Part shown: one piece after another, positions 25,211 to 57,395 of the stretch
Layout of the letters: every line of letters starts with the position of its first letter
Position numbering within the stretch: position 1 is the stretch's first letter
Source: a virus
Length of the DNA: 64,000 nt
Direction: 5' to 3' (one strand)
Virus record (IMG/VR): IMGVR_UViG_3300020429_000529
Coordinates: 262,762-326,761 of that record
Translations under genes and position numbers: made by a program
The notes under the pieces: generated by a model
Told to the model about the DNA's origin: nothing
Databases searched by the model: none
The model's input: the letters and a program-made list of their open reading frames with translations, nothing else

Positions 25211-25399
25211 TCAGTGAACCTGACGTTCCTGTTCTTCGAAGTGTTCTCGAAATGCGGTCATAGCTCGATCCATAAGGGGTTCTTCGGCGAGTATAGCAGT
25301 AATCCTCTTCACTTCCACGCTATTCCCCAAGATTTTTTGCGTTAGGGAGATTTTTGCTATGGCTTGACCCCTTGCAGGTGATAGCCTATTATGCTCCAA
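25211..25399 (-). CDS. small hypothetical protein (62 aa)
   Basis: ORF in the divergent intergenic region; weak. Confidence 0.2.
   Translation of the reverse strand: MEHNRLSPARGQAIAKISLTQKILGNSVEVKRITAILAEEPLMDRAMTAFREHFEEQERQVH
25364..25392 (+). promoter_or_regulatory. sigma-70-like promoter (TTGACC-17-TATTAT)
   Basis: ttgacc ccttgcaggtgatagcc tattat about 30 nt upstream of the plus ORF. Confidence 0.55.
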
Positions 25400-25421
25400 T
25401 GGCTACTCTTGACTCAAACTT

Positions 25422-26528
25422 GTGGAGGTCGTTTTGGCAATAGGCATCTCAACAGAGAGGGCTACCGAGCTTCTTTCGACAGTCGCTACGCCCAAAGTCC
25501 GTATGAAGGCTATCGGCGGCGCTCAACACCGATCTACAGCAGTTCTCAAAGAGGTTCAAGGCGATCATGCAATCGTCTTGCCCCACGGTCATCGGAGAAC
25601 AGAGCGCATTCCTCTCTCGGACCTGTCGGAATGGAAGGCCGCAAACGAATCAGGACACAAGAGGAAGACGCCTCCTCCGAAAGGGAAGCCGCAACGCCAA
25701 CCTCGTCTTCCATATCAGTCAGTGCAGCATGGTTCAGGAACAGAGCAGGCGACGAAGCATGTTGTCTTCAGCCGCAAACAGAAGGGCATGTTCGGAGGAA
25801 CCAAGCGCCGATGGACATCGCAGACCACGATGTGCATCCAATACGAGACAGAGGCAGGCGCAAAGAGATCGGCAGCCAAGCTTCGCAGAAACAACGAGTC
25901 AGACGACGCCGAGGTTATGACGGTTGTTGCAGGTCGCCAACTCGCAATCGAACTGCATCAGAAAGAGCCTGAGTCAATAGTTGTCGAGGAAGAGAAGCCT
26001 TCTGTCTCTTTCCCTTTCGACCAGTTTGCGGGAGATCTTCTCGAACCTTCGATCGCATCGATTCTGTCTCTCGACTTTGAACGCATGCAGTCTTTGGACG
26101 CTGGAAAATTTACTGCGGCCATGGACAAGCGGACCAAAGCAATCAGCGATCTTCTCGAAGTCAAAGACATGATGGTCGATGCCATTAATGCCGTCAAAGC
26201 AGCAGACGCAGAAGTACGAGAGGCAGCAAGGTCGGTCCTGGTCAGCGGCGACATCGATTTGGCAGAAGCCAATGGCAAGGCGAAATCGACGGTTGAAAAG
26301 CCAACCGCGCCAAAGATAACCGTCAAGGCAGTTGTCGAGGGGATTCTTCTTGAAGAGCCCAACTCGCTCTTCAAGAAACACCTGGTTACAAAGGTTGTTG
26401 ACACTGGAATTAGCAAGGCTAAGCATCCTCGTACCAGCGTCGGCATTGCCATCGGCAAGATGATCGAGAATGGGATTATCAAAGTCAACGGCAACAGGAC
26501 CCTGCAGTGGGTTGGCGATGGCGCATGA
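25422..26528 (+). CDS. hypothetical protein (start ambiguous: GTG 25422, TTG 25434 after GGAGG, or ATG 25503)
   Basis: 368-aa ORF; GGAGG at 25423-25427 favours TTG 25434. Confidence 0.45.
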   Translation: MEVVLAIGISTERATELLSTVATPKVRMKAIGGAQHRSTAVLKEVQGDHAIVLPHGHRRTERIPLSDLSEWKAANESGHKRKTPPPKGKPQRQPRLPYQSVQHGSGTEQATKHVVFSRKQKGMFGGTKRRWTSQTTMCIQYETEAGAKRSAAKLRRNNESDDAEVMTVVAGRQLAIELHQKEPESIVVEEEKPSVSFPFDQFAGDLLEPSIASILSLDFERMQSLDAGKFTAAMDKRTKAISDLLEVKDMMVDAINAVKAADAEVREAARSVLVSGDIDLAEANGKAKSTVEKPTAPKITVKAVVEGILLEEPNSLFKKHLVTKVVDTGISKAKHPRTSVGIAIGKMIENGIIKVNGNRTLQWVGDGA

Positions 26529-26552
26529 AAAAGGCGGCTTTCGCCGCCTTGA
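26528..26552. terminator. hairpin terminator between convergent genes (stronger for minus strand)
   Basis: aaaaaGGCGGCtttcGCCGCC; the minus-strand reading gives a T-run after the stem. Confidence 0.55.
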
Positions 26553-26572
26553 GTAGATTGCCTTGAAACGAG

Positions 26573-27262
26573 TTAGACTTCGTTCTGCGTGATGACGATT
26601 CGTCCGTTAGACTTGGACTCCGTATACTTCGGGTTTGTCCAGAAAACGCCGATTGTTCCGTCGCTGTTCTGACGCTCAACATAGCGGCGCTTGTAGTCGG
26701 GACCAACCGATCTCATCTTTGTTGAGGTCAGAAGGTTCTTCCATTCGCTCCATGTCTTGCCGTTCTCTCGGATACGGAACTCATAGCTATAGGTTCGGTT
26801 CAGGTCAATATCGATCTGACTCTTGTTGACGCTTTGCAGAACCTCAAGAGATGGGACAGCGAAGCCGTCATACGCTCGGAACGAGTAGATCAGAACAGAG
26901 TCGTTCTTGCGACGAATCTGCCAATCTGTGTAGGTATGGCTCGCGCTATCTGTAGAAACGGCAATGCGAGTTTCGTTGGGACGAGAAATCGGGTTTGCGC
27001 CAAGCGCTCCCCTTGCAACAGAGGTCGAGGACAGGAACTTATGGCTGATGGTAAAGGCCCTGAGCGGAACGCCGCCTGAGCCGCCTTCGCCTGCTCCAAC
27101 GCCGCCCTCTTCGCCTACCTGTCCTCCCATTCCTGGTTCGATCTCGCCGCCGCTAACCTCGCCGCCTTCAAGATCTCCGCCGCCAATGCTTCCTCCGCCG
27201 AGACTTCCTCCGCCGCCAACGCCTTTACCAAATACTGGCATAGCTCTGCCCTCCGAATACAC
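26573..27262 (-). CDS. Gly-rich N-terminal region plus C-terminal beta-rich domain protein (start likely internal MPVFG)
   Basis: GGGGSLGGGS repeats then a globular C-terminus. Confidence 0.4.
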   Translation of the reverse strand: MYSEGRAMPVFGKGVGGGGSLGGGSIGGGDLEGGEVSGGEIEPGMGGQVGEEGGVGAGEGGSGGVPLRAFTISHKFLSSTSVARGALGANPISRPNETRIAVSTDSASHTYTDWQIRRKNDSVLIYSFRAYDGFAVPSLEVLQSVNKSQIDIDLNRTYSYEFRIRENGKTWSEWKNLLTSTKMRSVGPDYKRRYVERQNSDGTIGVFWTNPKYTESKSNGRIVITQNEV

Positions 27263-27313
27263 ATAAGTTGAAGACTATGCCTCACTTTATTGCTTCCAGA
27301 GAACTATTCCTTC

Positions 27314-29187: not shown

Positions 29188-29189
29188 AT

Positions 29190-37252: not shown

Positions 37253-37733
37253 TCTTGTTCTCCTCCGCGAGAAATACGCTCTCGACATCCGGCTGAATGA
37301 AGTCAGCAGGTATGTCATCTGTTTTTGTCGGTAGTCTAATGAGATCGCTTGCGAGACTGCCAATGGCTCTTTCTCGGAACCGCTTGGACCGCTGCAGGGC
37401 TTCTTCTATGGAACTGTCTCGAAACGCCATGACCTCTTCTCCTCAACGACCATATCGGTCTTCTGTGGCCAGTAATTCACTGGCTCTACAGCGATTTGAG
37501 GCAAAAGCCTCTTTGATGCGTGTAGTTCTCTTATCCGATGACAGAGTTGGCCGAAAGAACACATTGGCTCTTGGAGGACCGCCTTGTGAGGCTCCCCATA
37601 ATCGATCTCAACTTCTCGGACTGCTCCGTTTGCGAGGAACGAATACGGTTGTCGTTCGCGAACACGCTGACCAGCTTCAGGTGCCGCCGATTTAGGGTAC
37701 AATGAGGTTGCAGTATAAGTCAAAGGTGACATC

Positions 37734-38252
37734 ATGAGCGACCAGGCGATTGCCGAAAAACAACGCAACTACTCGTTTCTCTCGAAGAAGGCCGACTCGC
37801 TCGATTCGGTTGAGATCGATGGTCAAGAGTTTGTTGTTCCAGCGCAGAACGGTTCATGCTATTGGGCCATCATTAAAATCGGGTATCTTCATCATGATGA
37901 GCCCCTCTCACTCGATACTTTCATCGATGAGGTGGCCGAGCTTCTCGAAGAACGAGACCCCATCAAGTGGGACAAGTTCAAGAATAAGAAGCGAGTCAAG
38001 ACGCTGAAGAACGGAGAGGTTGTCGAGAAGCCCGCAAACTGTTGGCGGAAGAGAATCGAGACCAATATCAAAACTTTGACCAGAGATGGCGGCAGCAATC
38101 CTTATGGTCAAAGGCTGATTGAAAGAGGTCACATTCTTCGCTATGAGCCCTTCCACTTCGGAGGCAGAGGGGCTTTTGTGTTGCGCACGAATACCAATAG
38201 GCCGCTTGAACTCAAGAAGGGACGATCATCTCGCGACTCCGAGAAGGAGTAA
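37734..38252 (+). CDS. hypothetical protein
   Basis: 172-aa ORF with aaggtga SD-like upstream. Confidence 0.4.
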   Translation: MSDQAIAEKQRNYSFLSKKADSLDSVEIDGQEFVVPAQNGSCYWAIIKIGYLHHDEPLSLDTFIDEVAELLEERDPIKWDKFKNKKRVKTLKNGEVVEKPANCWRKRIETNIKTLTRDGGSNPYGQRLIERGHILRYEPFHFGGRGAFVLRTNTNRPLELKKGRSSRDSEKE

Positions 38253-38764: not shown

Positions 38765-38774
38765 GGAGACAGTT

Positions 38775-43820: not shown

Positions 43821-44042
43821 ATGGCTTTTTACAAGACAACGACTGCGGATCACAAGCCGTCAATTGGCGTGCTTGCTGATTTGATTCGCAAGCATGGCGC
43901 TCACTCAGGAGAGGTAGAAGCGTACATGACCCGTTTCCAAGACGACACTTCATTCTGCAAGAGAGCCAATCTATTGATCGGCGCTGGCGGAATTGTCGAT
44001 GTGATTGCAGAGGGCACAAGCGATGCCCAAGATGAGGAGTAA
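43821..44042 (+). CDS. small hypothetical protein
   Basis: AGGAGGAAGACA-ATG strong SD. Confidence 0.4.
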   Translation: MAFYKTTTADHKPSIGVLADLIRKHGAHSGEVEAYMTRFQDDTSFCKRANLLIGAGGIVDVIAEGTSDAQDEE

Positions 44043-44045
44043 GGA

Positions 44046-44807
44046 ATGATTTCGACCGAAGAACTACAAGAGACGCTGAATATCAAACTCGCCGAAGAAG
44101 TTGCAGCAGAAATCGCAAACACCTTTGAGACAAGGGCAAATAACGAGAACCTTGAGCTTGAGTTCCGAATTCCTGCGGGACAAGGGCGAATGGAAGGTAC
44201 TCTGGACGGTCCTAACACCTGGTTCAAGTTCGATGCCGAAGAAGGCACGACTCTTGCGAGGGTCAGAGACATCATTGTTGATGTGTTCTCAGAGGATTTC
44301 GATCTGAATGACGGTAAGGCGTCGGCCCGTATGGATGCCCGCCGCAACATCATTGATGGTTTCGTCGATCAGGTCAGAACCGTTCTCAACAGCGGTCAGT
44401 TCCATGAGGAGATTGCTGGCACGATCCGTCGAGTTTGTTTGCAGAACATCCCCGAAGAGATCCATCCGCTCGATGTCATTCGTTTCTTGGAGATCGAGAT
44501 CGGAGACGGCAATCCCGATGAGGTTCTGCTCATCATCGAAAAGAAAGCGCTCGTTGACTCTGCGACAGGGCAGTTCATAAACCCGCCTGTCTCCGTGCAA
44601 GAAGTTCTGCATGAAGAGCATCGAGAGACTGGTAAGGATTTCAATCAGATCATCGAAGAGAAGAAGGCAGCAGGCGACGAGCGATTCGACCTTGTTACAG
44701 GTGCCAGAACTGTACGGTATGCTTTCGAGGTCCATTGCGATATCGCCGTAGACTACTCTCTTGCGGAGCGATCTGATGTCCCAAAGCCTCGTATTGCCCA
44801 AACCTGA
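44046..44807 (+). CDS. hypothetical protein
   Basis: 253-aa ORF. Confidence 0.4.
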   Translation: MISTEELQETLNIKLAEEVAAEIANTFETRANNENLELEFRIPAGQGRMEGTLDGPNTWFKFDAEEGTTLARVRDIIVDVFSEDFDLNDGKASARMDARRNIIDGFVDQVRTVLNSGQFHEEIAGTIRRVCLQNIPEEIHPLDVIRFLEIEIGDGNPDEVLLIIEKKALVDSATGQFINPPVSVQEVLHEEHRETGKDFNQIIEEKKAAGDERFDLVTGARTVRYAFEVHCDIAVDYSLAERSDVPKPRIAQT

Positions 44808-45348
44808 AGAACTGAAGATTCGTCTTAGTCCGTATTCGACTCTGTACGAAAGAGCCCAAGAAGTACCCGTCTCCAAAGAGGGTTTCGAGGACGCTGATTC
44901 TACGCGAGCATACTGCGATCGACTTATTGCTCTTCTCGAATCAACAGGCAACAGAGGTATTGGCCTGGCTGCAAATCAGGCAGGACTATTGTTGCGCATC
45001 TTCATCTGTCGAGACAATCTCAACGATCCTGCTGCAAAAGATCGCCCTTGCCGAGCATATATCAACCCGAAGATTTTGAGCGGCTATGGGGGCAAGATCG
45101 CCGAAACAGAAGGATGCTTGAGTTTTCCAGGCGTCAATGGACCCGTCGAAAGATATCAGACAATCGATGCGGAATGGTACGATATTAATGGAGCGAAGCA
45201 TCATCAGCCTTTGACGGGTCTGCATGCACGGTGTTTCATCCATGAAGTCGATCATTTGGATGGGGTAAATATCCCCGACCGTTTCGACGATGCCGCCCTC
45301 AAGAGGAACAGAGCGGCCCTCAAGCGGCTCGGATATCGCCGCCACTGA
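44776..45348 (+). CDS. def: peptide deformylase
   Basis: GIGLAANQ, EGCLSFPG and HEVDHLDG motifs. Confidence 0.75.
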   Translation: MSQSLVLPKPEELKIRLSPYSTLYERAQEVPVSKEGFEDADSTRAYCDRLIALLESTGNRGIGLAANQAGLLLRIFICRDNLNDPAAKDRPCRAYINPKILSGYGGKIAETEGCLSFPGVNGPVERYQTIDAEWYDINGAKHHQPLTGLHARCFIHEVDHLDGVNIPDRFDDAALKRNRAALKRLGYRRH

Positions 45349-45357
45349 CTCCCGCCG

Positions 45358-45386
45358 TTGCAGGTGTAACGATATGAGGCTATGAT
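45358..45386 (+). promoter_or_regulatory. sigma-70-like promoter (TTGCAG-17-TATGAT) with TTGCAGGTG extended -35
   Basis: ttgcag gtgtaacgatatgaggc tatgat upstream of AAGGAG-ATG 45461. Confidence 0.5.
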
Positions 45387-45460
45387 AGTGAAGCCTCAAT
45401 ATGGGACAGCCTTCGTAGGGCAGACCCATGGAGATCGAACACCGACGAAGGAGTCAAACG

Positions 45461-47356
45461 ATGCTGACGCGAGTGATTCTGGGGATCTTCGCCATGGTCC
45501 TGACGACCGTGGCGAACGTCGCCCATGCGCAAGACGGAAAGAGTTTCACCGATCAGTTGGGCCGAGCGCCCATCGGCGATGTCGAACAGGACGGGCCCTG
45601 GAATGTCGGCTACATTCTTTGGGGCGCAGACCTCATTACCTTCAACGCCAATGGCAACAACCTGACGACGCAGCGAGGTTCGCTCTTCGACGAGAAGGGA
45701 CTGAACATCAACCTGGTGTCTTGCGATGATCCCTACGAGGCGATCCGCAGGTACATGGCTGGCGATCTTCATGTCCTTCGCATGACGGGCACCATGGCGG
45801 CGCTCGCTGCGGATGTCATCAATGCCGACCCGAGAACGAGGACGCATTACCTCCTGCAGATGTCATGGAGCGGCGGCGACCACCTTGTGGTTCGAGGCAA
45901 CATCAAGACGGTCGGCGACATGAAGGGCAAGACCTTCGCTGTTCAGCGGGGCGGTCCTCATATCAAGCTGATGAACGATGCGCTCGCCACGGACGGGTTG
46001 ACCTGGGGCGATATCAATGTCGTTTGGGCCGACACCATCACGGGGCCTGGCAGCGCCGCTGAGTTGTTCAAGAATGACCCGAACATCGATGGCTGCACCG
46101 TTGTTACTCCCGACATGTTCGGTCTGACCGGCGGTTTGCAGGCGATCGGCGACGGTCGAGATGGAACGATCAACGGTTCGAGAGTTCTGGTCTCAACGGC
46201 TGAACTGTCCCGTTCGATCGCCGACTGCTTCTTCATTCGCGCCGATTTCTGGGACTCGAACCGAGCCGAGGTCGAGGCGTTCGCTGCCGCTTGGCTCAAG
46301 TCTGCCGAACAGATGGTTCAGATGTCTGCCGAGTACGACGATCGAGGCAATGCCGACTACGAGGATGTTCTTCGGTTTGCCGTCGAGACCTACGGCAAGG
46401 TAGCGCTTCCTAATGAAGCCGAAGCGCATGGTCTCTTTCTCGATGCTCGTATCGTTGGGTATCCTGGTCAGATCGTCTTCTTTGAAGAGTCGAACAACCC
46501 TGTCGGCTTCGACAAGTTCTCTGACGAAACGATCGGCATTGCTCGTACTCTCGGGTATGTTCGCAATCCCAACTCCTTCCTGCCCACTCCGCTGAACTGG
46601 GGCTCTCGTTCGTTCGTCGGCTACCTCGACAACACGAATGTTCAGCGCAAGGAGCGCTTCAACGAGGAAATCGTTGCGGAGATCGAGAACTTCGACCTGG
46701 GCGATTTCGACGATCGAACCATCACGAAGTTCGAGATCAACTTCGATGTTGGTCAGGCAGACTTCCCTTACGCTCGCTTCGCTTCATCGTTCGATCGAGT
46801 TCTTGAGCAGCTTCCTCGATACGGTTCTGCTGCGATCGTCATTCGAGGTCACGCTGACCCGACTGCTACGCTGCGAGACATCGTTCGAGCGGGCAAGGAA
46901 CTTGGCGTCATTACCAATCAGCAGGGCGAGGGAGCGGATGCGGTCTACACGATCAGCGGTCGTCCTGTTCGCATCACCAGCATCGAGAACCTGATTCAGC
47001 TTGTCGAAGGCGGCGCTTTCGACGGAGCGGGCGTTGCGAATCCTCGGGAGACCTTCTCTGCGGCTATTCGTCTTGCAAGCAACCGAGGCGAATCGGTTCG
47101 GCAGATTCTCATCGAAGAGGCCGAGAAGCGAGGCGTCTACCTTGATCCTTCTCAGATCCAGGTTCAGGGCGTCGGCATTCGAGAGCCGTTGTACGCTCGT
47201 CCTTCCGGTTCGGGTTCGATGCCCGCTCGCGGTACGCCCGAGTTCAATCAATGGATGGACGAGGCAAGGCGTCAGGCGGCTGCCAACCGTCGTATCGAGT
47301 TCCGTCTGATCCGAGTCTCTGCTGAAGCGCAGAACGCTCAGGACTTCGACTTCTGA
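45461..47356 (+). CDS. secreted NitT/TauT-type substrate-binding-like domain fused to C-terminal OmpA-like domain
   Basis: Signal peptide MLTRVILGIFAMVLTTVANVAHA; SBP-like core; C-terminus VIRGHADPTAT...NRGESVRQILI OmpA_C-like. Confidence 0.5.
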   Translation: MLTRVILGIFAMVLTTVANVAHAQDGKSFTDQLGRAPIGDVEQDGPWNVGYILWGADLITFNANGNNLTTQRGSLFDEKGLNINLVSCDDPYEAIRRYMAGDLHVLRMTGTMAALAADVINADPRTRTHYLLQMSWSGGDHLVVRGNIKTVGDMKGKTFAVQRGGPHIKLMNDALATDGLTWGDINVVWADTITGPGSAAELFKNDPNIDGCTVVTPDMFGLTGGLQAIGDGRDGTINGSRVLVSTAELSRSIADCFFIRADFWDSNRAEVEAFAAAWLKSAEQMVQMSAEYDDRGNADYEDVLRFAVETYGKVALPNEAEAHGLFLDARIVGYPGQIVFFEESNNPVGFDKFSDETIGIARTLGYVRNPNSFLPTPLNWGSRSFVGYLDNTNVQRKERFNEEIVAEIENFDLGDFDDRTITKFEINFDVGQADFPYARFASSFDRVLEQLPRYGSAAIVIRGHADPTATLRDIVRAGKELGVITNQQGEGADAVYTISGRPVRITSIENLIQLVEGGAFDGAGVANPRETFSAAIRLASNRGESVRQILIEEAEKRGVYLDPSQIQVQGVGIREPLYARPSGSGSMPARGTPEFNQWMDEARRQAAANRRIEFRLIRVSAEAQNAQDFDF

Positions 47357-47384
47357 TCGTTGGGCATCGAGCAATAGGAGACTC

Positions 47385-48311
47385 ATGATGAAGATCATCG
47401 CAACACTCATCGCGTTCATTCTCGCGCCGCTTTGTATGGCGCAAGATTCGACGCCCAACGCCTTCTACCAGGACAATGTTGTCGTCGTCTTCGACGCCAG
47501 CGGTTCCATGGAGTGGGAGTTCAAGGGCGGAGGCACCGGCGAAGACCGCATCACGGTCGCTCGCAGGTCTCTCAAGGCCGTTCTGCAGCAAATCCCTTCG
47601 ACCACGAATGTCGGCATTCTCGTCTTCGGCGGGCAGCGAGGATGGATCTACGAGCTTGGACCCGCTGATCCGCAGAAGCTCGCTGAGGCTGTCGATCGCA
47701 TCAGAACGGGCGGAGGTACGCCTCTCGGTTCGTACATCAAGCAAGGCTGCGATATGCTGCTCTCTCAAAGAGACCAGCAAAACAACAACGGCAACTACAA
47801 GCTGCTGATCGTAACGGACGGCGATGCTGATGATGGGCGAGAAGCTCGACTGATGAACGAGTACGCCCCCATGGTCAAGCAGCGGGGCATCGTTCTTGAT
47901 GTCATCGCTCTCGACTTCGAGGGAGGTAATCGCCATGCGTTGTCGCAGCATGCTTCGATCTATCGTCCGGCGAATGACCCGAATGCAATGACTCAGCAGT
48001 TGCAGGAGGCTTTTGCTGAGGTCGGCGGTACGGATACGGTTGCATTCGAGGAAGCCATTGAAGAGATTGCTTTCCTTGACAGCGACAGGGCTCTTGCGCT
48101 GATTCAGGGGTTTGCGAATCCTCCGAATCAACCGCTCGGACAGAATGCTATTCCGACTAATGCGAGACGACAGGTCAATGGTTCTTCTGCTCAGCAGTCT
48201 CAATCGCAGCAGACGCAGGGGGCCGCTCCGATCGGAGCTATCTTCGGAATCGGAGCCATTGTCGTTGTCGTCATCATTGTGATCGTCATCCTCTCTGCCA
48301 TGAGGTACTGA
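47385..48311 (+). CDS. secreted von Willebrand factor A domain protein with C-terminal TM anchor
   Basis: Signal peptide; VVVFDASGSM MIDAS; GGTPLG; C-terminal IGAIVVVVIIVIVIL helix. Confidence 0.6.
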   Translation: MMKIIATLIAFILAPLCMAQDSTPNAFYQDNVVVVFDASGSMEWEFKGGGTGEDRITVARRSLKAVLQQIPSTTNVGILVFGGQRGWIYELGPADPQKLAEAVDRIRTGGGTPLGSYIKQGCDMLLSQRDQQNNNGNYKLLIVTDGDADDGREARLMNEYAPMVKQRGIVLDVIALDFEGGNRHALSQHASIYRPANDPNAMTQQLQEAFAEVGGTDTVAFEEAIEEIAFLDSDRALALIQGFANPPNQPLGQNAIPTNARRQVNGSSAQQSQSQQTQGAAPIGAIFGIGAIVVVVIIVIVILSAMRY

Positions 48312-48312
48312 T

Positions 48313-49896
48313 ATGCCCAGCAAAGGACCAGCAAGAACGCTGGCGATTGCGGGCGTATGGATTGTCGTCATCCTCGCAATCGTCCTGACCGTCAAGTTCA
48401 TCGTCTTTCCATCGCAGAAGCAGGCGGCGATCGACGAGACCAGCGCATCAAGCCGCTACAAGGAAGAGGTTCGTTTCGGCCTCGACAACTTTTCGTCCTA
48501 CGCGACAATCCGTTCCGAAGATATGGCGAACGATCTCGGACAGTCGGGTATCCGCTTGGAGCTTGTCTCCGACAATGCCGACTACACCGATCGTCTGAAG
48601 CGCATCAAGAACGGCGATCTTGATATGGCGGCGTTTACTCTTGACGCCCTTATCCTCGCTACGATCGAGTTGGGCGAAGCTCCCGCTGTTGCGGTCGCCA
48701 TGATCGATGCGACGGTCGGCGCTGATGGGATCGTTGCATGGGAGTCATCTGTCGCCAGTCTTGACGACCTGAATACGGCTGATGCGAGAATCCTCGGTAC
48801 GCCCCTGTCTCCGAGCGAAACCGTCAGCCGTATCACCAAATCGCACTTTCTGCCCAACATGCCAGATAACAACTGGTTTCTTGAGGCAAATGGCGCGCAA
48901 GATGTTTTCAACAGAATGCGACAGTATCGAGGAAAGCGGGTCGCATTTGCTCTCTGGGAGCCTTGGCTATCGAAGGCTGTTGCTGATCCTGGTATTCATG
49001 TCCTGATTGACAGCGGCAACATGCCCGATGCCATTGTTGATGTCATCGTTGTTCGCCGTCAGTTCCTTATCTCGAATCCGAGCGCTACAAGAGCGGTAGT
49101 CGAATCGTACCTGAGATCAGCTTACTCGCATCAGTCTGATATGCCCGCTCTTCTCATGGCCGATGCCAAGCAGCATGCAGATGAAATAACTCTCGACCAG
49201 GCTAAGTCGATTGTCAAGGGCATTCTTTGGAAGCGAACGATTGAGAACTACGCTCATTTCGGCTTGCTGCCAAGGCATGAGGCTGGCGGTCTGACCCATA
49301 TAGAGGACATGATCGCCAATATCACTCGGGTTCTGGTAGATACTGGCGCTATCTCTGCGGACAACATTGTCTATGGCAGAGAGAACACGCTCTACAACGA
49401 CAGCATCTTGCAGGCGATGCGAGAGAACAACTTCCATCCCGGCGATCGCAGTACCGTTGTCCAGAACTCGGGCGGTCGAGCAACCCTTGGAGACCTGGCA
49501 ACGGGCGCTCGTCCTGATCTTGGAAGCGTTCGAGGCGTTGAACAACTGCCGCCATTGTCCGAAGAGGAATGGAACTCCCTTATCGCTGTTGGAAGCCTCA
49601 AGGTCGAAGAACTCGATTTCCGTCGAGGAAGTTCTGACCTGAGCGGTTCGAGCAAGCGAGAGCTTCGGACGTTGGCGACGACGCTTGAAAACTTCCCTCG
49701 GTACTACTTGCTCGTCATCGGTAAGTCTCAGGGCGAGGATTCGGAATCGAATCGAACGTTTGCCCAAGAAAGAGCGCAGTCTGCGCTGGACTACCTTACC
49801 GATCTCGGCGTCAACCCCAATCGTCTCCGAGCGATCGGAACCGTAACCAGCGATTCATCTTCAGTTCAGTTCGTCGTAGGACAAAGGTCGTACTAA
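48313..49896 (+). CDS. membrane-anchored SBP-like domain fused to C-terminal OmpA-like domain (paralog of 45461..47356)
   Basis: N-terminal TM; C-terminus YYLLVIGKSQGEDSESNRTFAQERAQSALDYL OmpA_C-like. Confidence 0.5.
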   Translation: MPSKGPARTLAIAGVWIVVILAIVLTVKFIVFPSQKQAAIDETSASSRYKEEVRFGLDNFSSYATIRSEDMANDLGQSGIRLELVSDNADYTDRLKRIKNGDLDMAAFTLDALILATIELGEAPAVAVAMIDATVGADGIVAWESSVASLDDLNTADARILGTPLSPSETVSRITKSHFLPNMPDNNWFLEANGAQDVFNRMRQYRGKRVAFALWEPWLSKAVADPGIHVLIDSGNMPDAIVDVIVVRRQFLISNPSATRAVVESYLRSAYSHQSDMPALLMADAKQHADEITLDQAKSIVKGILWKRTIENYAHFGLLPRHEAGGLTHIEDMIANITRVLVDTGAISADNIVYGRENTLYNDSILQAMRENNFHPGDRSTVVQNSGGRATLGDLATGARPDLGSVRGVEQLPPLSEEEWNSLIAVGSLKVEELDFRRGSSDLSGSSKRELRTLATTLENFPRYYLLVIGKSQGEDSESNRTFAQERAQSALDYLTDLGVNPNRLRAIGTVTSDSSSVQFVVGQRSY

Positions 49897-50669
49897 TGCC
49901 TCGTCGAGAAGCCTTCAAGCAAAGAGTCATGATTGAGACAGCGGCATCGCTGCCGGTCCTGATTCCGACTGTTCTCGGAGTCACGGCGGGTATCGCTGGT
50001 ATCATCACGACTCCCCTTGTCGCCGCAGGCGGAGGCATTCTCGTCCTGATCGGCGGTGGTATCTGGGCGACTCGGATGATGAGCCCTCAAAGCGATATCC
50101 ATGAGAAGACCTGGAAAAAGATGGCAGAGGAAGAAGAGCGCAAAGAACAGGCTCGACTCGATGCTCTAAGCGAACATCTTGAACAGGACGGCGACCATCG
50201 AACAGAAAGCGCTCTTTCGGATATGCGGCAACTGATCCATTCGCTTAAGACTTCTGAGTTGTCAGCGAATGTCGTTCAGTCAGAAGGAATTGTTGACAAG
50301 GCGGAGCGCCTGTTCGAGGCTTCGGTAGACATGCTCGAAAAGACCCTTGGCGTCAATGCGACGATCTCGGGTTTGAGCAGAGGAAGCTCGGCTCGGGCGA
50401 GACTGGAAGAACAGCGCGAGCATATGGTAACGGAGGTACTGACCAATGTAGACCGACTAAGCAGCATCGTTGCCAAGATGCAGACCCTCGGAGCAACAGG
50501 AGACTTTGATTCTGCTGAGGGTCTTCGCGCTGAACTTGAATCGGATTTGGAAATCGTCGCGGAAGTCGAAGAACAGACTCGGCGCTGGGCGCGTGGCGAT
50601 TTTAGCCCCACATCGGGTATAGATTACGATGCCCTCGCCGAGGAAGGAGAACTCCATGGGACTCATTAG
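49896..50669 (+). CDS. membrane protein with cytoplasmic coiled-coil
   Basis: Gly-rich TM hairpin then heptad-rich region. Confidence 0.4.
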   Translation: MPRREAFKQRVMIETAASLPVLIPTVLGVTAGIAGIITTPLVAAGGGILVLIGGGIWATRMMSPQSDIHEKTWKKMAEEEERKEQARLDALSEHLEQDGDHRTESALSDMRQLIHSLKTSELSANVVQSEGIVDKAERLFEASVDMLEKTLGVNATISGLSRGSSARARLEEQREHMVTEVLTNVDRLSSIVAKMQTLGATGDFDSAEGLRAELESDLEIVAEVEEQTRRWARGDFSPTSGIDYDALAEEGELHGTH

Positions 50670-51495
50670 AGCATTTGGACGACTGTGGCGAGCGATTATT
50701 CTTCGTATCTCTGGTAACGCAGAGAACAAGGCTGATCGCATGATGGAAAACGCAAGCGCCATCCGTCAGGAATATCGAGAGATCAGCACCGAACTGCAGG
50801 GCGAACTCACCACCTTCCGAGATTCTGTTGGGCGCATGCTCGCTCAGAAAAAGTCGTTCGAGAAGAAGTCTGACCAGCATGCGACTGAAGCTGAGCGTTT
50901 CGGCAGAATCATGCGAGGCGCTCAGGCGAAGGCCAAGGCGTATGCCGACGAGAAGGGGCTTACGAAGGAACAGGCGCAGTCTGATCCCCAGTTCGTTACG
51001 CTCATGTCGGCGTATCAGGACGCCAAGACCAGTTTCGACCAGGAAACTGCGGCTGCCACAAACTACGCCAACGACGCTGCTGACATGCAGAAGAATCTCG
51101 ATTCGTACATGATCCAACTGCAGCAGAAGCAGCGCATGGTCGAGCAGGTCGCCCGAGAAGGTTCGACGGCGGAGGCTCGGGCGCAAGCGGCGCAGGAGAA
51201 GCAGCGTCTCGCCGAACTGCAGGCGGGAATGTCTTCGCAGAGCAGCACGACAGATCGCCTCAACAAGATCCGAGGCATCGTCGATCAGGTCGAGAGCCGA
51301 GCGGAAGTTACCGCCGAACTGGCGGGCACCAACACGACGGCGCTCGATGCGGAACTCGAACACTACGGCGAGCATGGCGCTGCCGCAGATCAGTTCATGG
51401 GGGACATCTTCGGCACTGACGGAGCCGACGATACCTCAAGGGCTGAGCATATCGAGATCGGGGGCGGAAGCGGCGACGGTAAGCCGAACGCCTGA
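50656..51495 (+). CDS. PspA/IM30/Vipp1 family protein (paralog 2)
   Basis: GAAGGAGAACTCC-ATG; MGLIRAFGRLWRAII N-terminus and coiled-coil. Confidence 0.65.
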   Translation: MGLIRAFGRLWRAIILRISGNAENKADRMMENASAIRQEYREISTELQGELTTFRDSVGRMLAQKKSFEKKSDQHATEAERFGRIMRGAQAKAKAYADEKGLTKEQAQSDPQFVTLMSAYQDAKTSFDQETAAATNYANDAADMQKNLDSYMIQLQQKQRMVEQVAREGSTAEARAQAAQEKQRLAELQAGMSSQSSTTDRLNKIRGIVDQVESRAEVTAELAGTNTTALDAELEHYGEHGAAADQFMGDIFGTDGADDTSRAEHIEIGGGSGDGKPNA

Positions 51496-51556
51496 GCGGA
51501 GCGGCTTGTTGCCGCCGGTAAGAACACACTTCTCAATGACGAAGGAGTCAAAGAAC

Positions 51557-52741
51557 ATGAGACTGTCAAGCATCATCATCGGGACCATTGCAGCCGCCGT
51601 TATCGGCTGCGGCGGTCAGGTCGCTGCCAGCACGAACGAGAGCGCCGATTACCCCGTCGTTACTCACCTGTGGAGCGAGTACCCGTCCTGGTCTGTCTTC
51701 GGCGTTGCGGGCAACCGCGCCGTCGCTCCTGACGAGGGCATCACCTTTGTCGGCAACGGCAAGAGCATCACCATCGAGGCTGGCGAGAGGTATGTCCTCG
51801 TCAATCCGAAGACCGGCGGGTCGATGGGCGTCCTCGAAGATCTCTATGAGATCGACTACAACTTCAGTCAGAAGGATTACGACCCGTGCATGCAGTTGTA
51901 CGGCAACGGCAATGCCGATTCCGTCTGCCTGACCAACATCGACATCCTTCCTTCTTCTCTCAGTCGCCCGTCTGTCATGATCCTCGCTACTTCGACGAGC
52001 GACAGCGCTGATGCGTTCATCGTCGAAGAGAGTCTGGTCGGCGAAAACCTTCTCGCAACTCTCGACAACATCCGCAAGGCGGGCATCGAGGTTCGAGGTC
52101 TCGACAAGTCGGTTTCCGACTTCACTCTGTTCCGCGCCATCGAGGAGGCGGGCGGCAATTGGGAAGACTACGCTGATCTCTGGTCCTACGCTGATCCCGC
52201 CGTCGCTGCTACCGGCATGCAGCAGCGCGATGACAAGTTCCAGGCGATCGTCGTTTGGAATCCCTTCAAGATGGAGACGCTTGCTCGTCGAGGCGACAGC
52301 GTTCGGGTCGTCGTCGATTCTGGCATCATCCCCAATGAGATCATCGACAGCGTATTCATGTCTCAGGCGCTTCTCGATCAGCCCCACGGCGAGCGAGCGG
52401 CGCAGGGCATCATCCATTCGTTCTACGCTGTCTGCGACCGCATGAACGCCTCGACGACAAGGGATGACACTCTCATCGCTATCGGCGAGCGGTTCAGCAA
52501 TCTCAGCCTTGGCGCTATGCGTCAGGTCGTTCGCGAGACCGTCTTCTACGATACCCCGGCGAAGAGCTTCGGCCTCATGACCGATCCGAACTTCCCCGCC
52601 ACCATGGATCGAGTTACGCAGTTCTCGCTCGACCGCGATGCCACGGACCAGCGAGCTACGGTCAGCTTCGGCAATGAGCGAGGCTCCAACCTCCGCATCG
52701 ACGCTTCGTTCATCGAGGCGTACCAGCAGAGCCAGCCCTGA
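51557..52741 (+). CDS. ABC transporter substrate-binding lipoprotein (NitT/TauT-like)
   Basis: GAAGGAG SD; lipobox AVIGC; SBP-like. Confidence 0.5.
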   Translation: MRLSSIIIGTIAAAVIGCGGQVAASTNESADYPVVTHLWSEYPSWSVFGVAGNRAVAPDEGITFVGNGKSITIEAGERYVLVNPKTGGSMGVLEDLYEIDYNFSQKDYDPCMQLYGNGNADSVCLTNIDILPSSLSRPSVMILATSTSDSADAFIVEESLVGENLLATLDNIRKAGIEVRGLDKSVSDFTLFRAIEEAGGNWEDYADLWSYADPAVAATGMQQRDDKFQAIVVWNPFKMETLARRGDSVRVVVDSGIIPNEIIDSVFMSQALLDQPHGERAAQGIIHSFYAVCDRMNASTTRDDTLIAIGERFSNLSLGAMRQVVRETVFYDTPAKSFGLMTDPNFPATMDRVTQFSLDRDATDQRATVSFGNERGSNLRIDASFIEAYQQSQP

Positions 52742-52810
52742 TCTGCGGCCACTCGCGTCGGCTTCGGCTGATGCACTCGCTGCGCCTCGCCCCCAGCGGG
52801 GCGCAGTTTT

Positions 52811-53632
52811 ATGATACGAGGCAGTATTTCAAAACGACGAAGCCTCTTCTTTAGCCTCCTCGCTGTGGCGATCATTGCGATCGGGTATGTTTCCCTATCG
52901 TGGATCATGAACAGTCGAGCCGAGGCAAGGGGAGAGTCCCTAAGCACGATGCCCAACGTCCAACAGTTGTGGGGAGGCTTCAAGGAAGTCTTTACGCCGC
53001 ACTACAGGTCGGGCGAGATTTGGGCCAAGCAAGACGCCATCGCTACGGGCACTCGCTTTGGCCTCGGTCTGTTGGCAACGATTGTTGGATCGATTTCGAT
53101 CGGTCTGATCTCTGGTTGCTTCCGAAGCATCGATGCTTTCTTTACTCCGATCCTTGTATGGATCGCCAAGATTCCGCCTACGGCTGCGCTACCAGTATTT
53201 TTCGCGCTGCTCGGAGCCGACAACACCATGTTCATCGGCCTCGCCATCTTCGGAACCGTTACTGGTTTGTATATGACGAGCCGCAACTCGGTCCTCAACA
53301 TCCCCGAACAGTTGATCCACAAGTCATACATCCTTGGCATCGATCATACAACGGCTGTTACGACGATTGCCGCACGAATGAGCCTCCCGCATATCATCGA
53401 AGGCATCCGTCTCTCCATCGGTCCTCTCATGGTCTATCTGATCGCTGCTGAAGCGCTGAGCGCTGATGTCGGCTTCGGATACACCATTCGAGTCCAGGCT
53501 CGCATCAATGACATGAAGGTCGTTTATCCTTACCTGTTGATGCTCTCGATGTTCGGGCTCTTTGTTGACTGGATCTTTGTTTGGCTCAAGCGGCTTCTCT
53601 GCTCATGGGCTATTGAGAAGCAGGAGAAATAA
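52811..53632 (+). CDS. ABC transporter permease
   Basis: Six TM segments, binding-protein-dependent permease-like core. Confidence 0.6.
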   Translation: MIRGSISKRRSLFFSLLAVAIIAIGYVSLSWIMNSRAEARGESLSTMPNVQQLWGGFKEVFTPHYRSGEIWAKQDAIATGTRFGLGLLATIVGSISIGLISGCFRSIDAFFTPILVWIAKIPPTAALPVFFALLGADNTMFIGLAIFGTVTGLYMTSRNSVLNIPEQLIHKSYILGIDHTTAVTTIAARMSLPHIIEGIRLSIGPLMVYLIAAEALSADVGFGYTIRVQARINDMKVVYPYLLMLSMFGLFVDWIFVWLKRLLCSWAIEKQEK

Positions 53633-53634
53633 TC

Positions 53635-54615
53635 ATGCCAAACAGAAAGCCCATTCTAAGCATCAAGAACCTCAGCCAATGGTTCGGCGATGTTCATGTT
53701 CTTGACAACCTGAACATTGACATCTATCCCGGAGAAATTGTTGCCCTTGTTGGACCAAGCGGTTGCGGCAAGTCTACGGTCCTCAACTGTATCACGGGGA
53801 CGTTACGGCCTAAGCGCGGCGAGGTCGTCCTTAGAGAGGCTGACGGCTCTCTCGTAAGCGTCAAGGGGCCGAGCCGAAGCCTTGGGCGAGTCTATCAGAA
53901 CTACTCGCTGTACCCCTTCTGGTCCGCTCGCAAGAATGTCGCCGCTGGACCGATGTTCAGAGAATCCAATCCCATCACCCGATGGACAGGGCATCCTTCC
54001 CTCAAAACCGGATGGAGAGGCGGTATTTGGTGGTGGTGGAAGGCCCGCAAGCGGCACCTTCTTCAAGCCGACCAGGAACTTGCTCGTCTTGGCCTTGGGG
54101 GACATGAGCGAAAGCTACCCAAACAACTCTCAGGCGGGCAGCAACAGCGAGTCGCAATTGCTCAAGCGCTTATCAACAAGCCAAGGGTTCTCCTGATGGA
54201 TGAGCCTTTCGGCGCTCTTGATGAAGCGACCCGAGAAAGGGAGCAGAAGTTTCTTCTGTCTCTCTACCTTGAGAACAAACGGGCTATTGCCGCTGGTCAA
54301 GAGCCTCCGAATACTGTCATCATCGTGACGCATGAGTTGAGCGAGGCAATCTATGTCGGCTCTCGCATCATTGGACTCAGCCAATGGAGAGATTCGAACG
54401 GAGACGGAGAGAGAACCGAGCATCCGAACGGTGCTGCCGTTCTACTCGACGAACCGTGTCCCATCTTTGATCCTCATGACACAAAGGACAAAGATGCTTT
54501 TATTGACCTGAGTCATCGCATTCTCGATGAGGTTTACGAGCCCAAGGAAGCGAACATGGTCAAGGATCTGCAAGAGACTCGTAAGCAGGTCAGCAGGATG
54601 GATGCCGAGTCATGA
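53635..54615 (+). CDS. ABC transporter ATP-binding protein
   Basis: Walker A GPSGCGKST; signature LSGGQQQR; Walker B VLLMDEP. Confidence 0.75.
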   Translation: MPNRKPILSIKNLSQWFGDVHVLDNLNIDIYPGEIVALVGPSGCGKSTVLNCITGTLRPKRGEVVLREADGSLVSVKGPSRSLGRVYQNYSLYPFWSARKNVAAGPMFRESNPITRWTGHPSLKTGWRGGIWWWWKARKRHLLQADQELARLGLGGHERKLPKQLSGGQQQRVAIAQALINKPRVLLMDEPFGALDEATREREQKFLLSLYLENKRAIAAGQEPPNTVIIVTHELSEAIYVGSRIIGLSQWRDSNGDGERTEHPNGAAVLLDEPCPIFDPHDTKDKDAFIDLSHRILDEVYEPKEANMVKDLQETRKQVSRMDAES

Positions 54616-54977
54616 GACCCGATGAAGTCGAAGTCGGTCAAGAGGTATGGATCAAGAACCCATGGGTTGATTCCATGGGCAACAACCCCATGCTTCCAAT
54701 CCTGAAAGGAAAGATCGAACAGATCAATGAAGCCAACGCCAGAAGAGCGTGTTGGGTATCAGGCGTCAACAGGTGGCTCTATCCCGAAGCCCTGCATCGA
54801 ACAAGGGAAGAAGCGGATAGCGTGCCTGCGGCAACTGTACCTGCGTATTCTTTCGTAGCAACAGTCAACGCCAATGTTGATAATGAAAAGTTGACTGATG
54901 CGGAGTTCAGAGAGTTCGTTCGCAATTCGCTACCGCTGGTCAGAGAGCTATTCGTGGAGCCTCTGTCGTCGGTATAA
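54612..54977 (+). CDS. hypothetical protein
   Basis: 121-aa ORF overlapping the upstream stop. Confidence 0.4.
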   Translation: MRPDEVEVGQEVWIKNPWVDSMGNNPMLPILKGKIEQINEANARRACWVSGVNRWLYPEALHRTREEADSVPAATVPAYSFVATVNANVDNEKLTDAEFREFVRNSLPLVRELFVEPLSSV

Positions 54978-54998
54978 GCATTCGGAGTTGTAGCCATC

Positions 54999-56219
54999 AT
55001 GCAGTTTGCTTTCGATGGAATCGATATCGCCAAGCCGTCTAATCTTCGTCGCATGAACCTCAACCGAGACGAAATTGATCGTCTGCGCATGTTTTGTTCA
55101 TCGGAGGAACTCCGATTCATCCCGCATCCTGCTTTTGAGTCGGGCACCGAGTTCCCCGACCCTATGCCAGAGTACCATCCGGACATTACCTGGTTTGTGA
55201 ATCTTGTTTCTTCGGATGCAACTGATGTCCACAGAGTTCGCCCTCCTGTGGATATTATTCGTTTGACTGCTGCTGAAGAGGACATGCTCTTTAGCCGGTA
55301 CAACTTCCATCGACGCCGACTGTATCTTGTTCAGGAAGAATGGATCAAGAACGGTCGCAGAAGCATGTTGATTCGAGACATTCGAGCGATTCTCCATGAC
55401 ATGCTTATGGTTGAACAGATCGAGGAGCGAATCTCGCATTTCAACCTGGGACTCTGCGTTGCGATGGCGAAGAAGATTCGACGAGAGGGCGACTACGAAA
55501 CGATGTCTGAGTTGTGGAGCGAATGCAACATCGCTCTTCTTCGGGCGATCAGAGGATTCGATTCCAGTCGAGGTTTCAAGTTCAGCACCTACGCTTGTCG
55601 AGCCATGCTCAAGGCCATGAGCAGAGAAAGGCAGCGCAACGCCAAGCATCGCAGCAGGTTTATCCCCGCTTCGTGCTTTGGCAGAGAAGGCTCTGATGCC
55701 GAAGAGCGTCATGCCTTCATGAATGCCATGGGCGAGTCTCCTGATGAGTTAGGCGATATCGTTGACTCGAATCATGATTCCTTCATTCACGATCAGGTTC
55801 AATTCCTTCTAACCAATCGCCTTGATTTCGGTCCTGAGCATTCTCTGACCGATCAAGAGAGAACTGCTATCCTTCACAGGTTTGATCCTAATGGAGGTAG
55901 CGGTATGCAGGGGCTCGTGACGCTTGAGAACATCGGCGAGATCATGGGCGTTACGAAGGAACGAGTCAGGCAAGTTATCAACAGCGGACTTTCCAAGATC
56001 CGCGACATCATCATGCACTTTGACCCGACTTCTGATTTTGAACTCGAAATTCCGCCCAAGCAGGAAGAAATCTCTGACGAAGATGATGTCAGAAGCGTCT
56101 TTACTGTTGTGGCGACAAACCAGGAGCCTTACGATGACGGATCTCTCGCTGCCACAGTTACACAAGACGATGATTTCGGAGTTTCAATGCTCGGGATGCT
56201 CTCGGGGGTTGAATCCTGA
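54999..56219 (+). CDS. sigma-70 family RNA polymerase sigma factor
   Basis: Region 2 RGFKFSTYACRAMLKAM; region 4 HTH LVTLENIGEIMGVTKERVRQVINSGLSKIR. Confidence 0.7.
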   Translation: MQFAFDGIDIAKPSNLRRMNLNRDEIDRLRMFCSSEELRFIPHPAFESGTEFPDPMPEYHPDITWFVNLVSSDATDVHRVRPPVDIIRLTAAEEDMLFSRYNFHRRRLYLVQEEWIKNGRRSMLIRDIRAILHDMLMVEQIEERISHFNLGLCVAMAKKIRREGDYETMSELWSECNIALLRAIRGFDSSRGFKFSTYACRAMLKAMSRERQRNAKHRSRFIPASCFGREGSDAEERHAFMNAMGESPDELGDIVDSNHDSFIHDQVQFLLTNRLDFGPEHSLTDQERTAILHRFDPNGGSGMQGLVTLENIGEIMGVTKERVRQVINSGLSKIRDIIMHFDPTSDFELEIPPKQEEISDEDDVRSVFTVVATNQEPYDDGSLAATVTQDDDFGVSMLGMLSGVES

Positions 56220-56726
56220 CGAGTGCGACAGCTTCAAGTACCATAAGCATGATGAAGGCAATGCTGGTTTCGGTTGCCATAATCATTCGCCTGGTACTAT
56301 GCTCGCTGGCGTGATTGTTACGGGAGGGAAGCAGGCGATTCAGAATGTCGTTCTTGGCTTGCCCAAGGGCTTCGATCGTTGCGGCCCTGTCGATTTCAAC
56401 AAGCAAGGCGTTTTCGTTCGCTTGTTCGACAGCACCGATCAGCTTGAGGGTCATTGGAACGAACTGAATATCCCCGTTTGGGCGATGGAGCGGGACGGCT
56501 TTTTGTTCGTTCGGACCTACATGCCTCGCATCAATACCTGCTATGTCGATGTCATTCACAACGGCAGCAGGGAAGCTCTTGTTCCGAGCGCTGTTGATGT
56601 CGGCGTTTTTGCCGATCAGATCGATTGAAAATTCGTCATGGCTTGCAGGTGCCGTATTTACTCGGTACACTAAAGATGAGCCCAAGCAGGCACTTCACCC
56701 GAAACGCCCGAAACGGAGGCAATCCA

Positions 56727-57299
56727 ATGACAGCATGTACGAGTCGATACACGCCCGACCAGGCAATCAATGCCGTCTGGCATCACTACATCCAACTGGG
56801 CGGTTTGCCTGCTCTGAGCATGGATGGTCGCAAGCTGTACCACATCGATGGCAACGGCTGCGCCATCACCGTTCTCGCAACGCCCGCCATGCGAGAGATG
56901 CTCGCCCTCACAGACCACCATGTCTCGCCCGCCTGCGAGCTTTCGAACCAGAACATCAACATCGCCGAGATCATCGATGCGCCGGATTGGTGTCGAGGCA
57001 GAGTTCTTGAGTTCCTGCAGTCCATCCAGAGCGCCCACGATGCCGCTGGCGACGAGTACCGCTTGAATCTTCTGGGCGGCGAGCCGAGGGGTCTCTGCCA
57101 CGACATCTTCTGCACTCGTCTCGCCCGCGAACTGGCGAATGTCTGTCGAGAGTTCGATCTCACCAAGCTGGCGCAGGATCTCAAGCTGCGCGATCGACCT
57201 GTTCGCCGAGACATCCCTGCGAAGCAGATCATCGACGACGCTCCGAAGTTCGATGTCCAGGAGTCCGAGGCTCCGTCCGAACTCGTCGGCGCTCTCTGA
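56727..57299 (+). CDS. hypothetical protein
   Basis: aacGGAGGc SD then ATG 56727. Confidence 0.4.
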   Translation: MTACTSRYTPDQAINAVWHHYIQLGGLPALSMDGRKLYHIDGNGCAITVLATPAMREMLALTDHHVSPACELSNQNINIAEIIDAPDWCRGRVLEFLQSIQSAHDAAGDEYRLNLLGGEPRGLCHDIFCTRLARELANVCREFDLTKLAQDLKLRDRPVRRDIPAKQIIDDAPKFDVQESEAPSELVGAL

Positions 57300-57366
57300 A
57301 CAGCAAGTCGCTTCATCTCTTTTCTCCCCACGCAAGGCTTCGCCAATCGGCGGAGCCTTGTTTCTT

Positions 57367-57395
57367 TTGCAGGTGTCGTTCGTAAGCAGTAGAAT
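57367..57395 (+). promoter_or_regulatory. sigma-70-like promoter (TTGCAG-17-TAGAAT) with TTGCAGGTG motif
   Basis: ttgcag gtgtcgttcgtaagcag tagaat upstream of GAGGG-GTG 57430. Confidence 0.5.

Follow-up and report, generated by a model that had tools for sequence, protein, structure and literature searches.

Jumbo and huge phages carry RpoD-like sigma factors that were probably derived from cells (PMC7824862, PMC7162821). Group 2 jumbo phages encode such cell-derived RpoD-like proteins (Iyer et al. 2021, PMC7824862), and a huge phage encoding its own sigma-70 has been described (Al-Shayeb et al. 2020, PMC7162821). Here we analyse a 64,000-nucleotide stretch of a marine element that is likely a giant phage (positions 262,762 to 326,761 of IMG/VR record IMGVR_UViG_3300020429_000529; hereafter the window). 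The element encodes a 406-residue protein of the sigma-70 family, and a nine-base box, TTGCAGGTG, recurs upstream of its genes in what is very probably a class of promoters. The same public contig supplied a further ~9 kb to either side of the window, so that 81.6 kb were examined in total.

Phage sigma factors with promoter classes of their own are textbook knowledge, the examples being SPO1 gp28 and gp33/34 and T4 gp55; viral transcription control of this kind is real and not unprecedented. To our knowledge, the promoters read by the sigma factors of uncultivated giant phages are almost never known.

The element resembles the jumbo and huge phages in combining a very large phage-like genome with a multi-domain sigma that is nearest to cellular sigmas and presumably redirects the host core polymerase, and in having no RNA polymerase of its own visible in the region examined. 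It differs from them in that its sigma has CRA where the RpoD-like sigmas of jumbo phages have TWW in region 2.4; in that this sigma belongs to a Planctomycetota-specific family of ~350-residue proteins and has, in PHROG and INPHARED, no relative nearer to it than the generic family; and in that a candidate cognate promoter class can be named for it. As in SPO1, a phage sigma is found together with a distinctive -35/-10 pair repeated before phage transcription units. However, the SPO1 sigma gene lies behind host-type early promoters, whereas the sigma operon described here carries the box. Since its presumed targets lie behind the box as well, the sigma may regulate itself, or a host orthologue may act as starter. 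What is particular to the element is the non-primary Planctomycetota source of its sigma, a sharp candidate cognate element, and a sigma gene behind the same promoter type.

A recurrent nine-base box with promoter geometry

The window has six exact copies of TTGCAGGTG, where dinucleotide-preserving shuffles predict 0.43 (none of 100 shuffles reaches six). The eight-base sequence TTGCAGGT is present in 13 copies against 1.5 expected, and the coupled arrangement CAGGTG-N14-TANNNT in 5 against 0.14. A seventh exact copy of the box lies 336 bases past the window end, at window-equivalent position 64336. Sequence that codes for no protein makes up 9.7% of the window and contains all six in-window copies, an outcome with a chance of ~8e-7 under uniform placement; similarly, the 7-mer CACCTGC is non-coding in six of its seven occurrences (p = 5e-6). 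The box is thus not equally frequent in coding sequence; equal frequency there is what the first-pass annotation of this DNA had named as speaking against its proposal.

The exact copies are all oriented toward the adjacent downstream gene, with predicted 5' leaders of ~15-70 nucleotides. At six of the seven sites a TAnnnT-type -10 follows 16-17 bases after TTGCAG; the seventh, at 25372, has TCCAAT. Six of the seven also combine a 16-18-base spacer, A2 and T6 of the -10, a position upstream of a gene and co-orientation with it. In an alignment of the seven sites the nine box bases are invariant, whereas the spacers, the flanks and the inner -10 positions vary, and this pattern points to selection on recognition rather than to a duplicated cassette.

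The first-pass annotation had proposed three of these sites as recurring promoters. All three boxes lie exactly where they had been placed (25372, 45358 and 57367), and the sites do behave as a promoter class, being intergenic and co-oriented, with a fixed spacer to TAnnnT and short leaders. Three exact sites are additional: 13826-13834(-), 21114-21122(-) and 56643-56651(+). Two details needed correction. The promoter proposed at 25364-25392 is a canonical TTGACC-17-TATTAT that overlaps the box, whose own register is the weaker TCCAAT at 25395-25400. A further occurrence inside a tRNA array, TTGCAGGTC at 12175, exists but is not a member of the class: the 19 bases between TTGCAG and its TACCCT do not fit the geometry of the other sites, and TTGCAGGTC forms the stem of a small hairpin, GCAGG-N7-CCTGC, in a spacer of the array. 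Given that spacing and the hairpin stem, we did not count it.

We hold with considerable confidence, from the sequence pattern, that the TTGCAGGTG-N14(13)-TAnnnT sites are promoters. Their predicted layout places TTGCAG at -35 to -30, GTG at -29 to -27 and TAnnnT at -12 to -7. TTGCAG matches TTGACA at three of six positions, so generic sigma-70 scans miss the box sites. Generic TTGACA/TATAAT-type sites show no non-coding enrichment, 5 of 37 being non-coding against ~3.6 expected, and a generic promoter scan of 44001-64000 gave 12 sites where 10.2 are expected. No convincing second recurrent motif emerged from the sequences upstream of 30 other operon heads, and the 9-mer, looked for in the full text of the literature, turned up nothing but eukaryotic-primer noise.

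The sigma factor belongs to a Planctomycetota family

The gene at 54999-56219(+) encodes a 406-residue sigma-70 family protein in which regions 2 and 4 are both present, as first annotated. Both pass in Pfam (Sigma70_r2, PF04542, 34.2 bits against a cut-off of 24; Sigma70_r4, PF04545, 35.9 against 24.1), and the protein matches PHROG 351, 'RNA polymerase sigma factor' (7e-24). Among NCBIfam models the generic TIGR02937 is the sole pass; the RpoD, RpoS, RpoH, FliA and SigB/F/G models are far under cut-off. TIGR02393 (RpoD_Cterm) reaches 63 bits against a cut-off of 354, which places the protein outside group 1 (RpoD/SigA), and region 3, which serves to recognise groups 1-3, gave no Sigma70_r3 Pfam match in it.

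The two DNA-binding regions align with those of primary sigmas, with exceptions. RGFKFSTYA in region 2.3/2.4 aligns to RGYKFSTYA of primary sigmas, but where these have TWWIRQ the element sigma has CRAMLK (CRA(M/I)LK in its family) and so no tryptophan pair. In region 4, TLENIGEIMGVTKERVRQV aligns to TLEEVGKVFGVTRERIRQI of SigA. Within the region 4.2 sequence TKERVRQ, the equivalents of E. coli E585, R586, R588 and Q589 are kept, whereas a lysine, Lys320, stands at the position of R584.

In an AlphaFold model (predicted local distance difference test score 73) a helical sigma1.2-like segment and sigma2 (~91-220) are confident, as is sigma4 (~257-340). The linker of 40-65 residues, which takes the place of a sigma3 domain, is predicted with low confidence (227-259) and is shorter still in bacterial homologues, and the C-terminal tail (346-406) is acidic and disordered. 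SigA chains are the top matches of the model among known structures in Foldseek. No second sigma gene is present in the 81.6 kb examined.

The nearest non-identical homologues share 35-39% identity and are ~350-residue proteins of Phycisphaerales and other Planctomycetota. A scan of GTDB with one genome per species gave 589 related stretches, the best of them overwhelmingly from Planctomycetota. Of the 45 columns that are invariant in the Planctomycetota family, W65, RGFKFSTY(A)C and TKERVRQ among them, none is altered in the element sigma; relative to the family it has an insertion before region 4 and an acidic tail of ~60 residues. By these comparisons it is a non-primary member of a ~350-residue family typical of Planctomycetota, mainly Phycisphaerae, and the element appears to have taken it from a Planctomycetota lineage. 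We considered whether the nearest homologue (39% identity) might itself belong to a related phage; its context is ordinarily bacterial, with RF-1, sulfatase and SOD genes.

The promoter class seems not to be shared with the bacterial family. Neither the box nor any other common motif was found upstream of 27 bacterial homologues. Their loci, 1.25 Mb of mostly Planctomycetota DNA, contain 17 bare 9-mers against ~9 expected, none of the 17 with a -10 partner, and two relaxed box matches only. The box-plus-minus-10 combination is absent from this DNA, and the putative promoter class is thus private to the element.

The sigma gene ends an operon that carries the box

Ten closely packed plus-strand genes (45461-56219) form the operon, and the sigma gene closes it. 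The ten encode a 631-residue protein, a VWA protein, an NMT1/OmpA-like protein, three proteins without assigned function, an ABC permease, an ABC ATPase, a 121-residue open reading frame (ORF) and sigma. The box at 45358, inside a 111-base gap after the peptide deformylase gene, is the only recognisable promoter of the operon. A strong terminator-like hairpin interrupts it before the permease gene (Table 1) and is probably an attenuator, judging by its sequence, that would lower expression of the permease, the ATPase, the 121-residue ORF and sigma. The 121-residue ORF might, by its position, be a candidate sigma partner or anti-sigma.

With its VWA, OmpA-like and ABC genes, the operon looks cellular within an otherwise phage-like genome; over 45461-54615, two of its proteins may be counted as NMT1/OmpA-like. 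An identical 14-base ribosome-binding block, GACGAAGGAGTCAA, stands before three start codons, at 19470-19483(-), 45444-45457(+) and 51538-51551(+), where 0.06 copies would be expected.

Sites, transcription units and an upstream second box

The units behind the box class would comprise the eight-tRNA array, the sigma operon, a block of flotillin, UvdE, CTP_transf_like and tRNA-synt_1e genes, and several small units (Table 1). The members of that block, flotillin, UvdE, a CTP_transf_like-domain protein and a tRNA-synt_1e-domain protein, follow the gene at 57430-58110. Their putative promoter at 57367 starts 6 bases past a terminator hairpin (57332-57361) that is one of the two strongest of its kind in the region. 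Downstream of the 13834 box, toward the tRNA array, lies a canonical TTGACA-16-TAAGCT at 13767-13740(-). Between the same box and the array we found a 34-codon ORF, MERTINKMIGDQPNRHGSAEDPALPPFGFTDTAA (13588-13692(-)), with a GAGGAG ribosome-binding site, which is absent from the public gene calls examined.

A position-weight scan added four degenerate copies that keep a CAGGTG or AAGTG core, again upstream of genes or tRNAs. One of the four, a weak relative at 25318(-), is similar in its spacer to the site at 21122.

At three of the seven promoters there is a second sequence, GCCACTGAC, 8-10 bases upstream of the 9-mer, which may mark an additional factor. The related sequence CCACTGAC occurs in seven copies in the window against 1.6 expected. 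Three of its copies overlap His-TGA stop codons (45346, 17019 and 61657), including the copy at 45341 upstream of the sigma operon promoter, and these stop-codon copies may be unrelated to the three promoter-upstream copies. When metagenomes were scanned for GCCACTGAC-N8-10-TTGCAGGTG, the 105 loci that matched were without exception unrelated or coding, and none came from this genome.

Table 1. Putative promoters of the box class and associated features, in window coordinates.
Feature	Position	Strand	Context
Putative promoter, TTGCAGGTG-N14-TATGAT	45358..45386	+	heads 10-gene operon 45461-56219 ending with sigma gene
Putative promoter, TTGCAGGTG-N14-TACACT	56643..56671	+	intergenic gap 56629-56726, upstream of 190-residue gene 56727-57299
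Putative promoter, TTGCAGGTG-N14-TAGAAT	57367..57395	+	upstream of 57430-58110 and following genes
Box, TTGCAGGTG-N14-TCCAAT	25372..25400	+	overlaps TTGACC-17-TATTAT (25364-25392); upstream of 25422-26528
Putative promoter, TTGCAGGTG-N14-CATACT	21094..21122	-	gap 21042-21190, upstream of minus-strand gene 20253-21041
Putative promoter, TTGCAGGTG-N13-TATACT	13807..13834	-	heads 34-codon ORF and eight-tRNA array 13133-11490
Putative promoter, TTGCAGGTG-N14-TACAAT	64336 (window-equivalent)	+	between tRNA-synt_1e-domain (aminoacyl-tRNA synthetase-like) gene and next ORF
Degenerate copy, TTACAGGTG-N14-TATGCT	44695..44723	+	in 3' part of 44046-44807, before peptide deformylase 44761-45348
Degenerate copy, CTTCAGGTG-N14-TACAAT	37675..37703	+	31 bases upstream of ORF 37734-38252
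Degenerate copy, TTCCAGGTG-N14-CAAAGT	22240..22268	-	upstream of minus-strand gene 21803-22153
Weak relative, GTGGAAGTGAAGAGGA...TATACT (GTGGAAGTG)	25290..25318	-	before tRNA-Glu array 25150-24744; membership tentative
Second box, GCCACTGAC	45341..45349	+	8 bases before 9-mer; overlaps deformylase stop codon
Second box, GCCACTGAC	13845-13853 and 21133-21141	-	10 bases before 9-mers
Intrinsic-terminator-like hairpin with T-run	52779..52807	+	12 pairs, 9 G-C; directly before ABC permease gene 52811
121-residue ORF	54612..54977	+	21-base gap before sigma gene; no Pfam or PHROG match

Candidate readers of the box

Our leading, though still tentative, explanation is that the box is read by the element's own sigma or by a host orthologue of the same family; its assignment to the element sigma in particular is plausible but unproven. 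Host core RNA polymerase carrying the element-encoded Planctomycetota-type sigma would then recognise TTGCAGGTG, and the equivalents of E585, R588 and Q589 in the region 4.2 sequence TKERVRQ would read TTG. In sigma-70, R588, E585 and Q589 read TTG (R588 at -33) and R584 selects C at -31; the structure of Taq sigmaA region 4 with -35 DNA is part of the basis for these roles. Sigma-32, which is without R584, reads TTGAAA. A sigma that lacks R584 is thus expected to keep TTG and to drop C at -31, which fits TTGCAG, and the lysine in place of R584 would explain why the element has TTGCAG instead of TTGAC(A/C). There is a parallel with sigma-32 (RpoH, CTTGAAA) here: E-R-x-R-Q is kept with no R584 equivalent, TTG is kept, C at -31 is lost, and the -35 exceeds six bases. 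Unlike sigma-32, however, the element sigma scores far below cut-off with the NCBIfam RpoH models, and its candidate -10 is TAnnnT rather than CCCCATnT.

The same explanation would account for the arrangement of the circuit. A host orthologous sigma would fire the first transcripts and the element copy would then amplify expression; the recognition helix is invariant between the element sigma and the bacterial family, so a host orthologue could start the circuit. With the sigma gene behind the 45358 promoter and downstream of the attenuator, the result would be a positive feedback loop. The tandem canonical TTGAC(A/C) promoters (25364 and 13767) would give the host primary sigma separate access, and the pairing of such a promoter with the box at two loci may point to two different readers. 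The whole scheme, in which a captured non-primary Planctomycetota sigma, a private nine-base extended -35 code and a self-amplifying loop behind an attenuator control tRNA arrays and auxiliary metabolic and membrane operons in a marine giant phage of Planctomycetota, is possible, and we advance it with greater reserve than the assignment of the reader.

Several observations weigh against recognition by a sigma of this family. The link between sigma and box is unproven, and the collections searched hold no diverged relatives of the element in which promoter conservation or co-occurrence of sigma and motif could be followed. Bacterial homologues with the same recognition helix show no box upstream or within the 1.25 Mb around them. 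Because the sigma gene is itself dependent on a promoter of this type, the circuit needs a different starter. It would be unusual for region 4 to read bases -29 to -27. The -10 hexamers resemble the ordinary TAnnnT of primary sigmas, yet the element sigma is without the W433/W434 pair. Moreover, TTGCAC, TTGCAA, TTGCGT and TTGCCT (also TTGACT) serve as -35 hexamers in Planctomycetota tRNA promoters, at a 17-base spacing from TAnnnT, and binding of TTGCAG by a host primary sigma is therefore plausible. Finally, the architecture may also be likened to that of T4 middle promoters with their MotA box.

The last points lead to other readers. It is possible, but in our judgement doubtful, that the host primary sigma reads the sites, taking TTGCAG as an acceptable TTGC-type -35, while the element sigma serves another promoter class, perhaps in another part of the 498-kb genome; the sigma operon, the tRNAs and the auxiliary genes would then be 'early' genes. 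The classic TAnnnT -10s and the canonical 17-base spacer are as this would predict, as are the TTGC-type -35s of the Planctomycetota tRNA promoters. Besides, a phage sigma gene usually owes its first expression to host-type promoters, and the box promoter is the only one of the sigma operon. We also looked at ~149 kb of Planctomycetota non-coding DNA, in which TTGN3-17-TANNNT is enriched specifically at the 17-base spacing. There TTGC is about as enriched as TTGA, which favours the host sigma, but TTGCAG itself is rare among the host-type -35 hexamers (1 of 59, against 7 for TTGACC and 6 for TTGACA). A host primary sigma thus tolerates -35 elements of the TTGC type, but no counterpart of the invariant CAGGTG is found. 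Nine invariant bases that extend to -27 far exceed what a housekeeping -35 needs, no TTGCAGGTG with a -10 was found in the 1.25 Mb of bacterial loci, and the tandem canonical promoters at two loci suggest that they and the box have different readers.

An asymmetric nine-base box near -30/-31, at a fixed distance from TAnnnT and with no TTGACA-like -35, is also what T4 middle promoters offer to MotA and AsiA. A separate box-binding protein of element or host, whether a MotA/AsiA-like activator or a shared repressor, might overlay or replace -35 recognition here, and GCCACTGAC, conserved 8-10 bases upstream at three of the seven sites, could belong to the same or a second factor. Most neighbouring ORFs are of no known function, which leaves room for such a protein, and AsiA occurs in jumbo phages (PMC7824862). 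We nevertheless regard a separate factor as improbable. Unlike the T4 box, the element box begins with TTG exactly in the -35 register, as expected for direct reading by region 4.2, and a separate factor would be an extra component where the element already encodes, close by, a sigma whose region 4 is intact. An asymmetric 9-mer would be unusual for a dimeric repressor. No candidate factor was identified: among ~35 window proteins scanned against PHROGs or Pfam none matched MotA or AsiA, though neither was specifically sought. It is more improbable still that the 9-mers are some other intergenic signal, for recombination, packaging, replication or action at the RNA level, beside which the -10-like hexamers are coincidental. 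That the element is known only from metagenome assemblies leaves some room for this idea. Against it stand the fixed-distance coupling to TAnnnT, far above expectation, a strand that always matches the downstream gene, and one site placed directly after a terminator; and the box would not be in the RNA at all if transcription starts after the -10. Recognition by the element sigma or its host orthologue thus remains the reading we prefer.

The element and its gene content

Near-identical Tara Oceans contigs, eleven of them ~498.5 kb long, are the only ones to carry the identical sigma protein. Two of the near-equal assemblies, ERZ17089788 NODE_1289088 (498,610 bases) and CEWJ01144027.1 (498,513 bases), differ in where they start, as a circular or circularly permuted genome would; the element is probably such a genome, complete, of a single clonal population. 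The contigs come from several Tara Oceans samples and, at >=99.97% identity as read, are too clonal to show conservation. Among INPHARED phages, neither the sigma protein nor 24 kb of the DNA found a relative. Nor did sigma, the 631-residue protein or flotillin in IMG/VR, where the sole match was to a flotillin of 25% identity on a 543-kb UViG.

The genes include phage-like ones: NAMPT, Ro60/TROVE, a protein with PolyA_pol and HD domains, peptide deformylase and 12-14 tRNAs. A CobS/CobT-like ATPase and metallopeptidase pair and a glutamine-synthetase-like protein are also encoded. From this content the element is likely a giant phage; with no capsid, portal, terminase or tail gene seen in the 81.6 kb examined, that identity is likely rather than demonstrated.

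An ORF at 29-1249 has the same 406-residue length as sigma, and we considered the two as a related pair; they are unrelated and the equal length is coincidence. The ORF is the C-terminal end of a 1358-residue protein with no Pfam or PHROG match, and a 900-residue protein with PolyA_pol and HD domains lies just upstream of it.

The tRNA array at 11490-13800(-) contains two Asp, three Met and three Pro tRNAs separated by spacers of 65-300 bases, and adjoins the Ro60/TROVE gene (9214-10848(-)). On the minus strand several of its spacers carry repeated units of the form TTGA(C/A)AACTGAATAAGAA ... CAGGTCGAAG-N8-GGTTAAC ... CCCATAC(T/C)TG. Given the Ro60 neighbour, RNAs from these spacers could be Y-RNA-like (YrlA-type); Rfam gives a single YrlA match, whose 24 bits fall short of the gathering score of 69. 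The array also holds tRNA-like pieces missed by ARAGORN, a 128-base Rfam tRNA match at 11800-11927 and an acceptor/T-arm-like element near 13248-13355. In a second array, at 24744-25150(-), ARAGORN finds four tRNA-Glu genes, and Rfam adds a tRNA at 24906-24980(-) in the gap.

Implications

The analysis yields a testable pair, one sigma and one sharply defined nine-base box before at least seven transcription units. If the box is read by a host primary sigma or by a MotA-like factor, it would be an ordinary promoter family. If instead the element sigma or its host orthologue reads it, the pair would be a compact orthogonal sigma-promoter system and would offer a clue to the host of a 498-kb marine element. 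We know of no promoter specificity for the ~350-residue Planctomycetota sigma family; the box would be the first for a family that is present in hundreds of Planctomycetota species.

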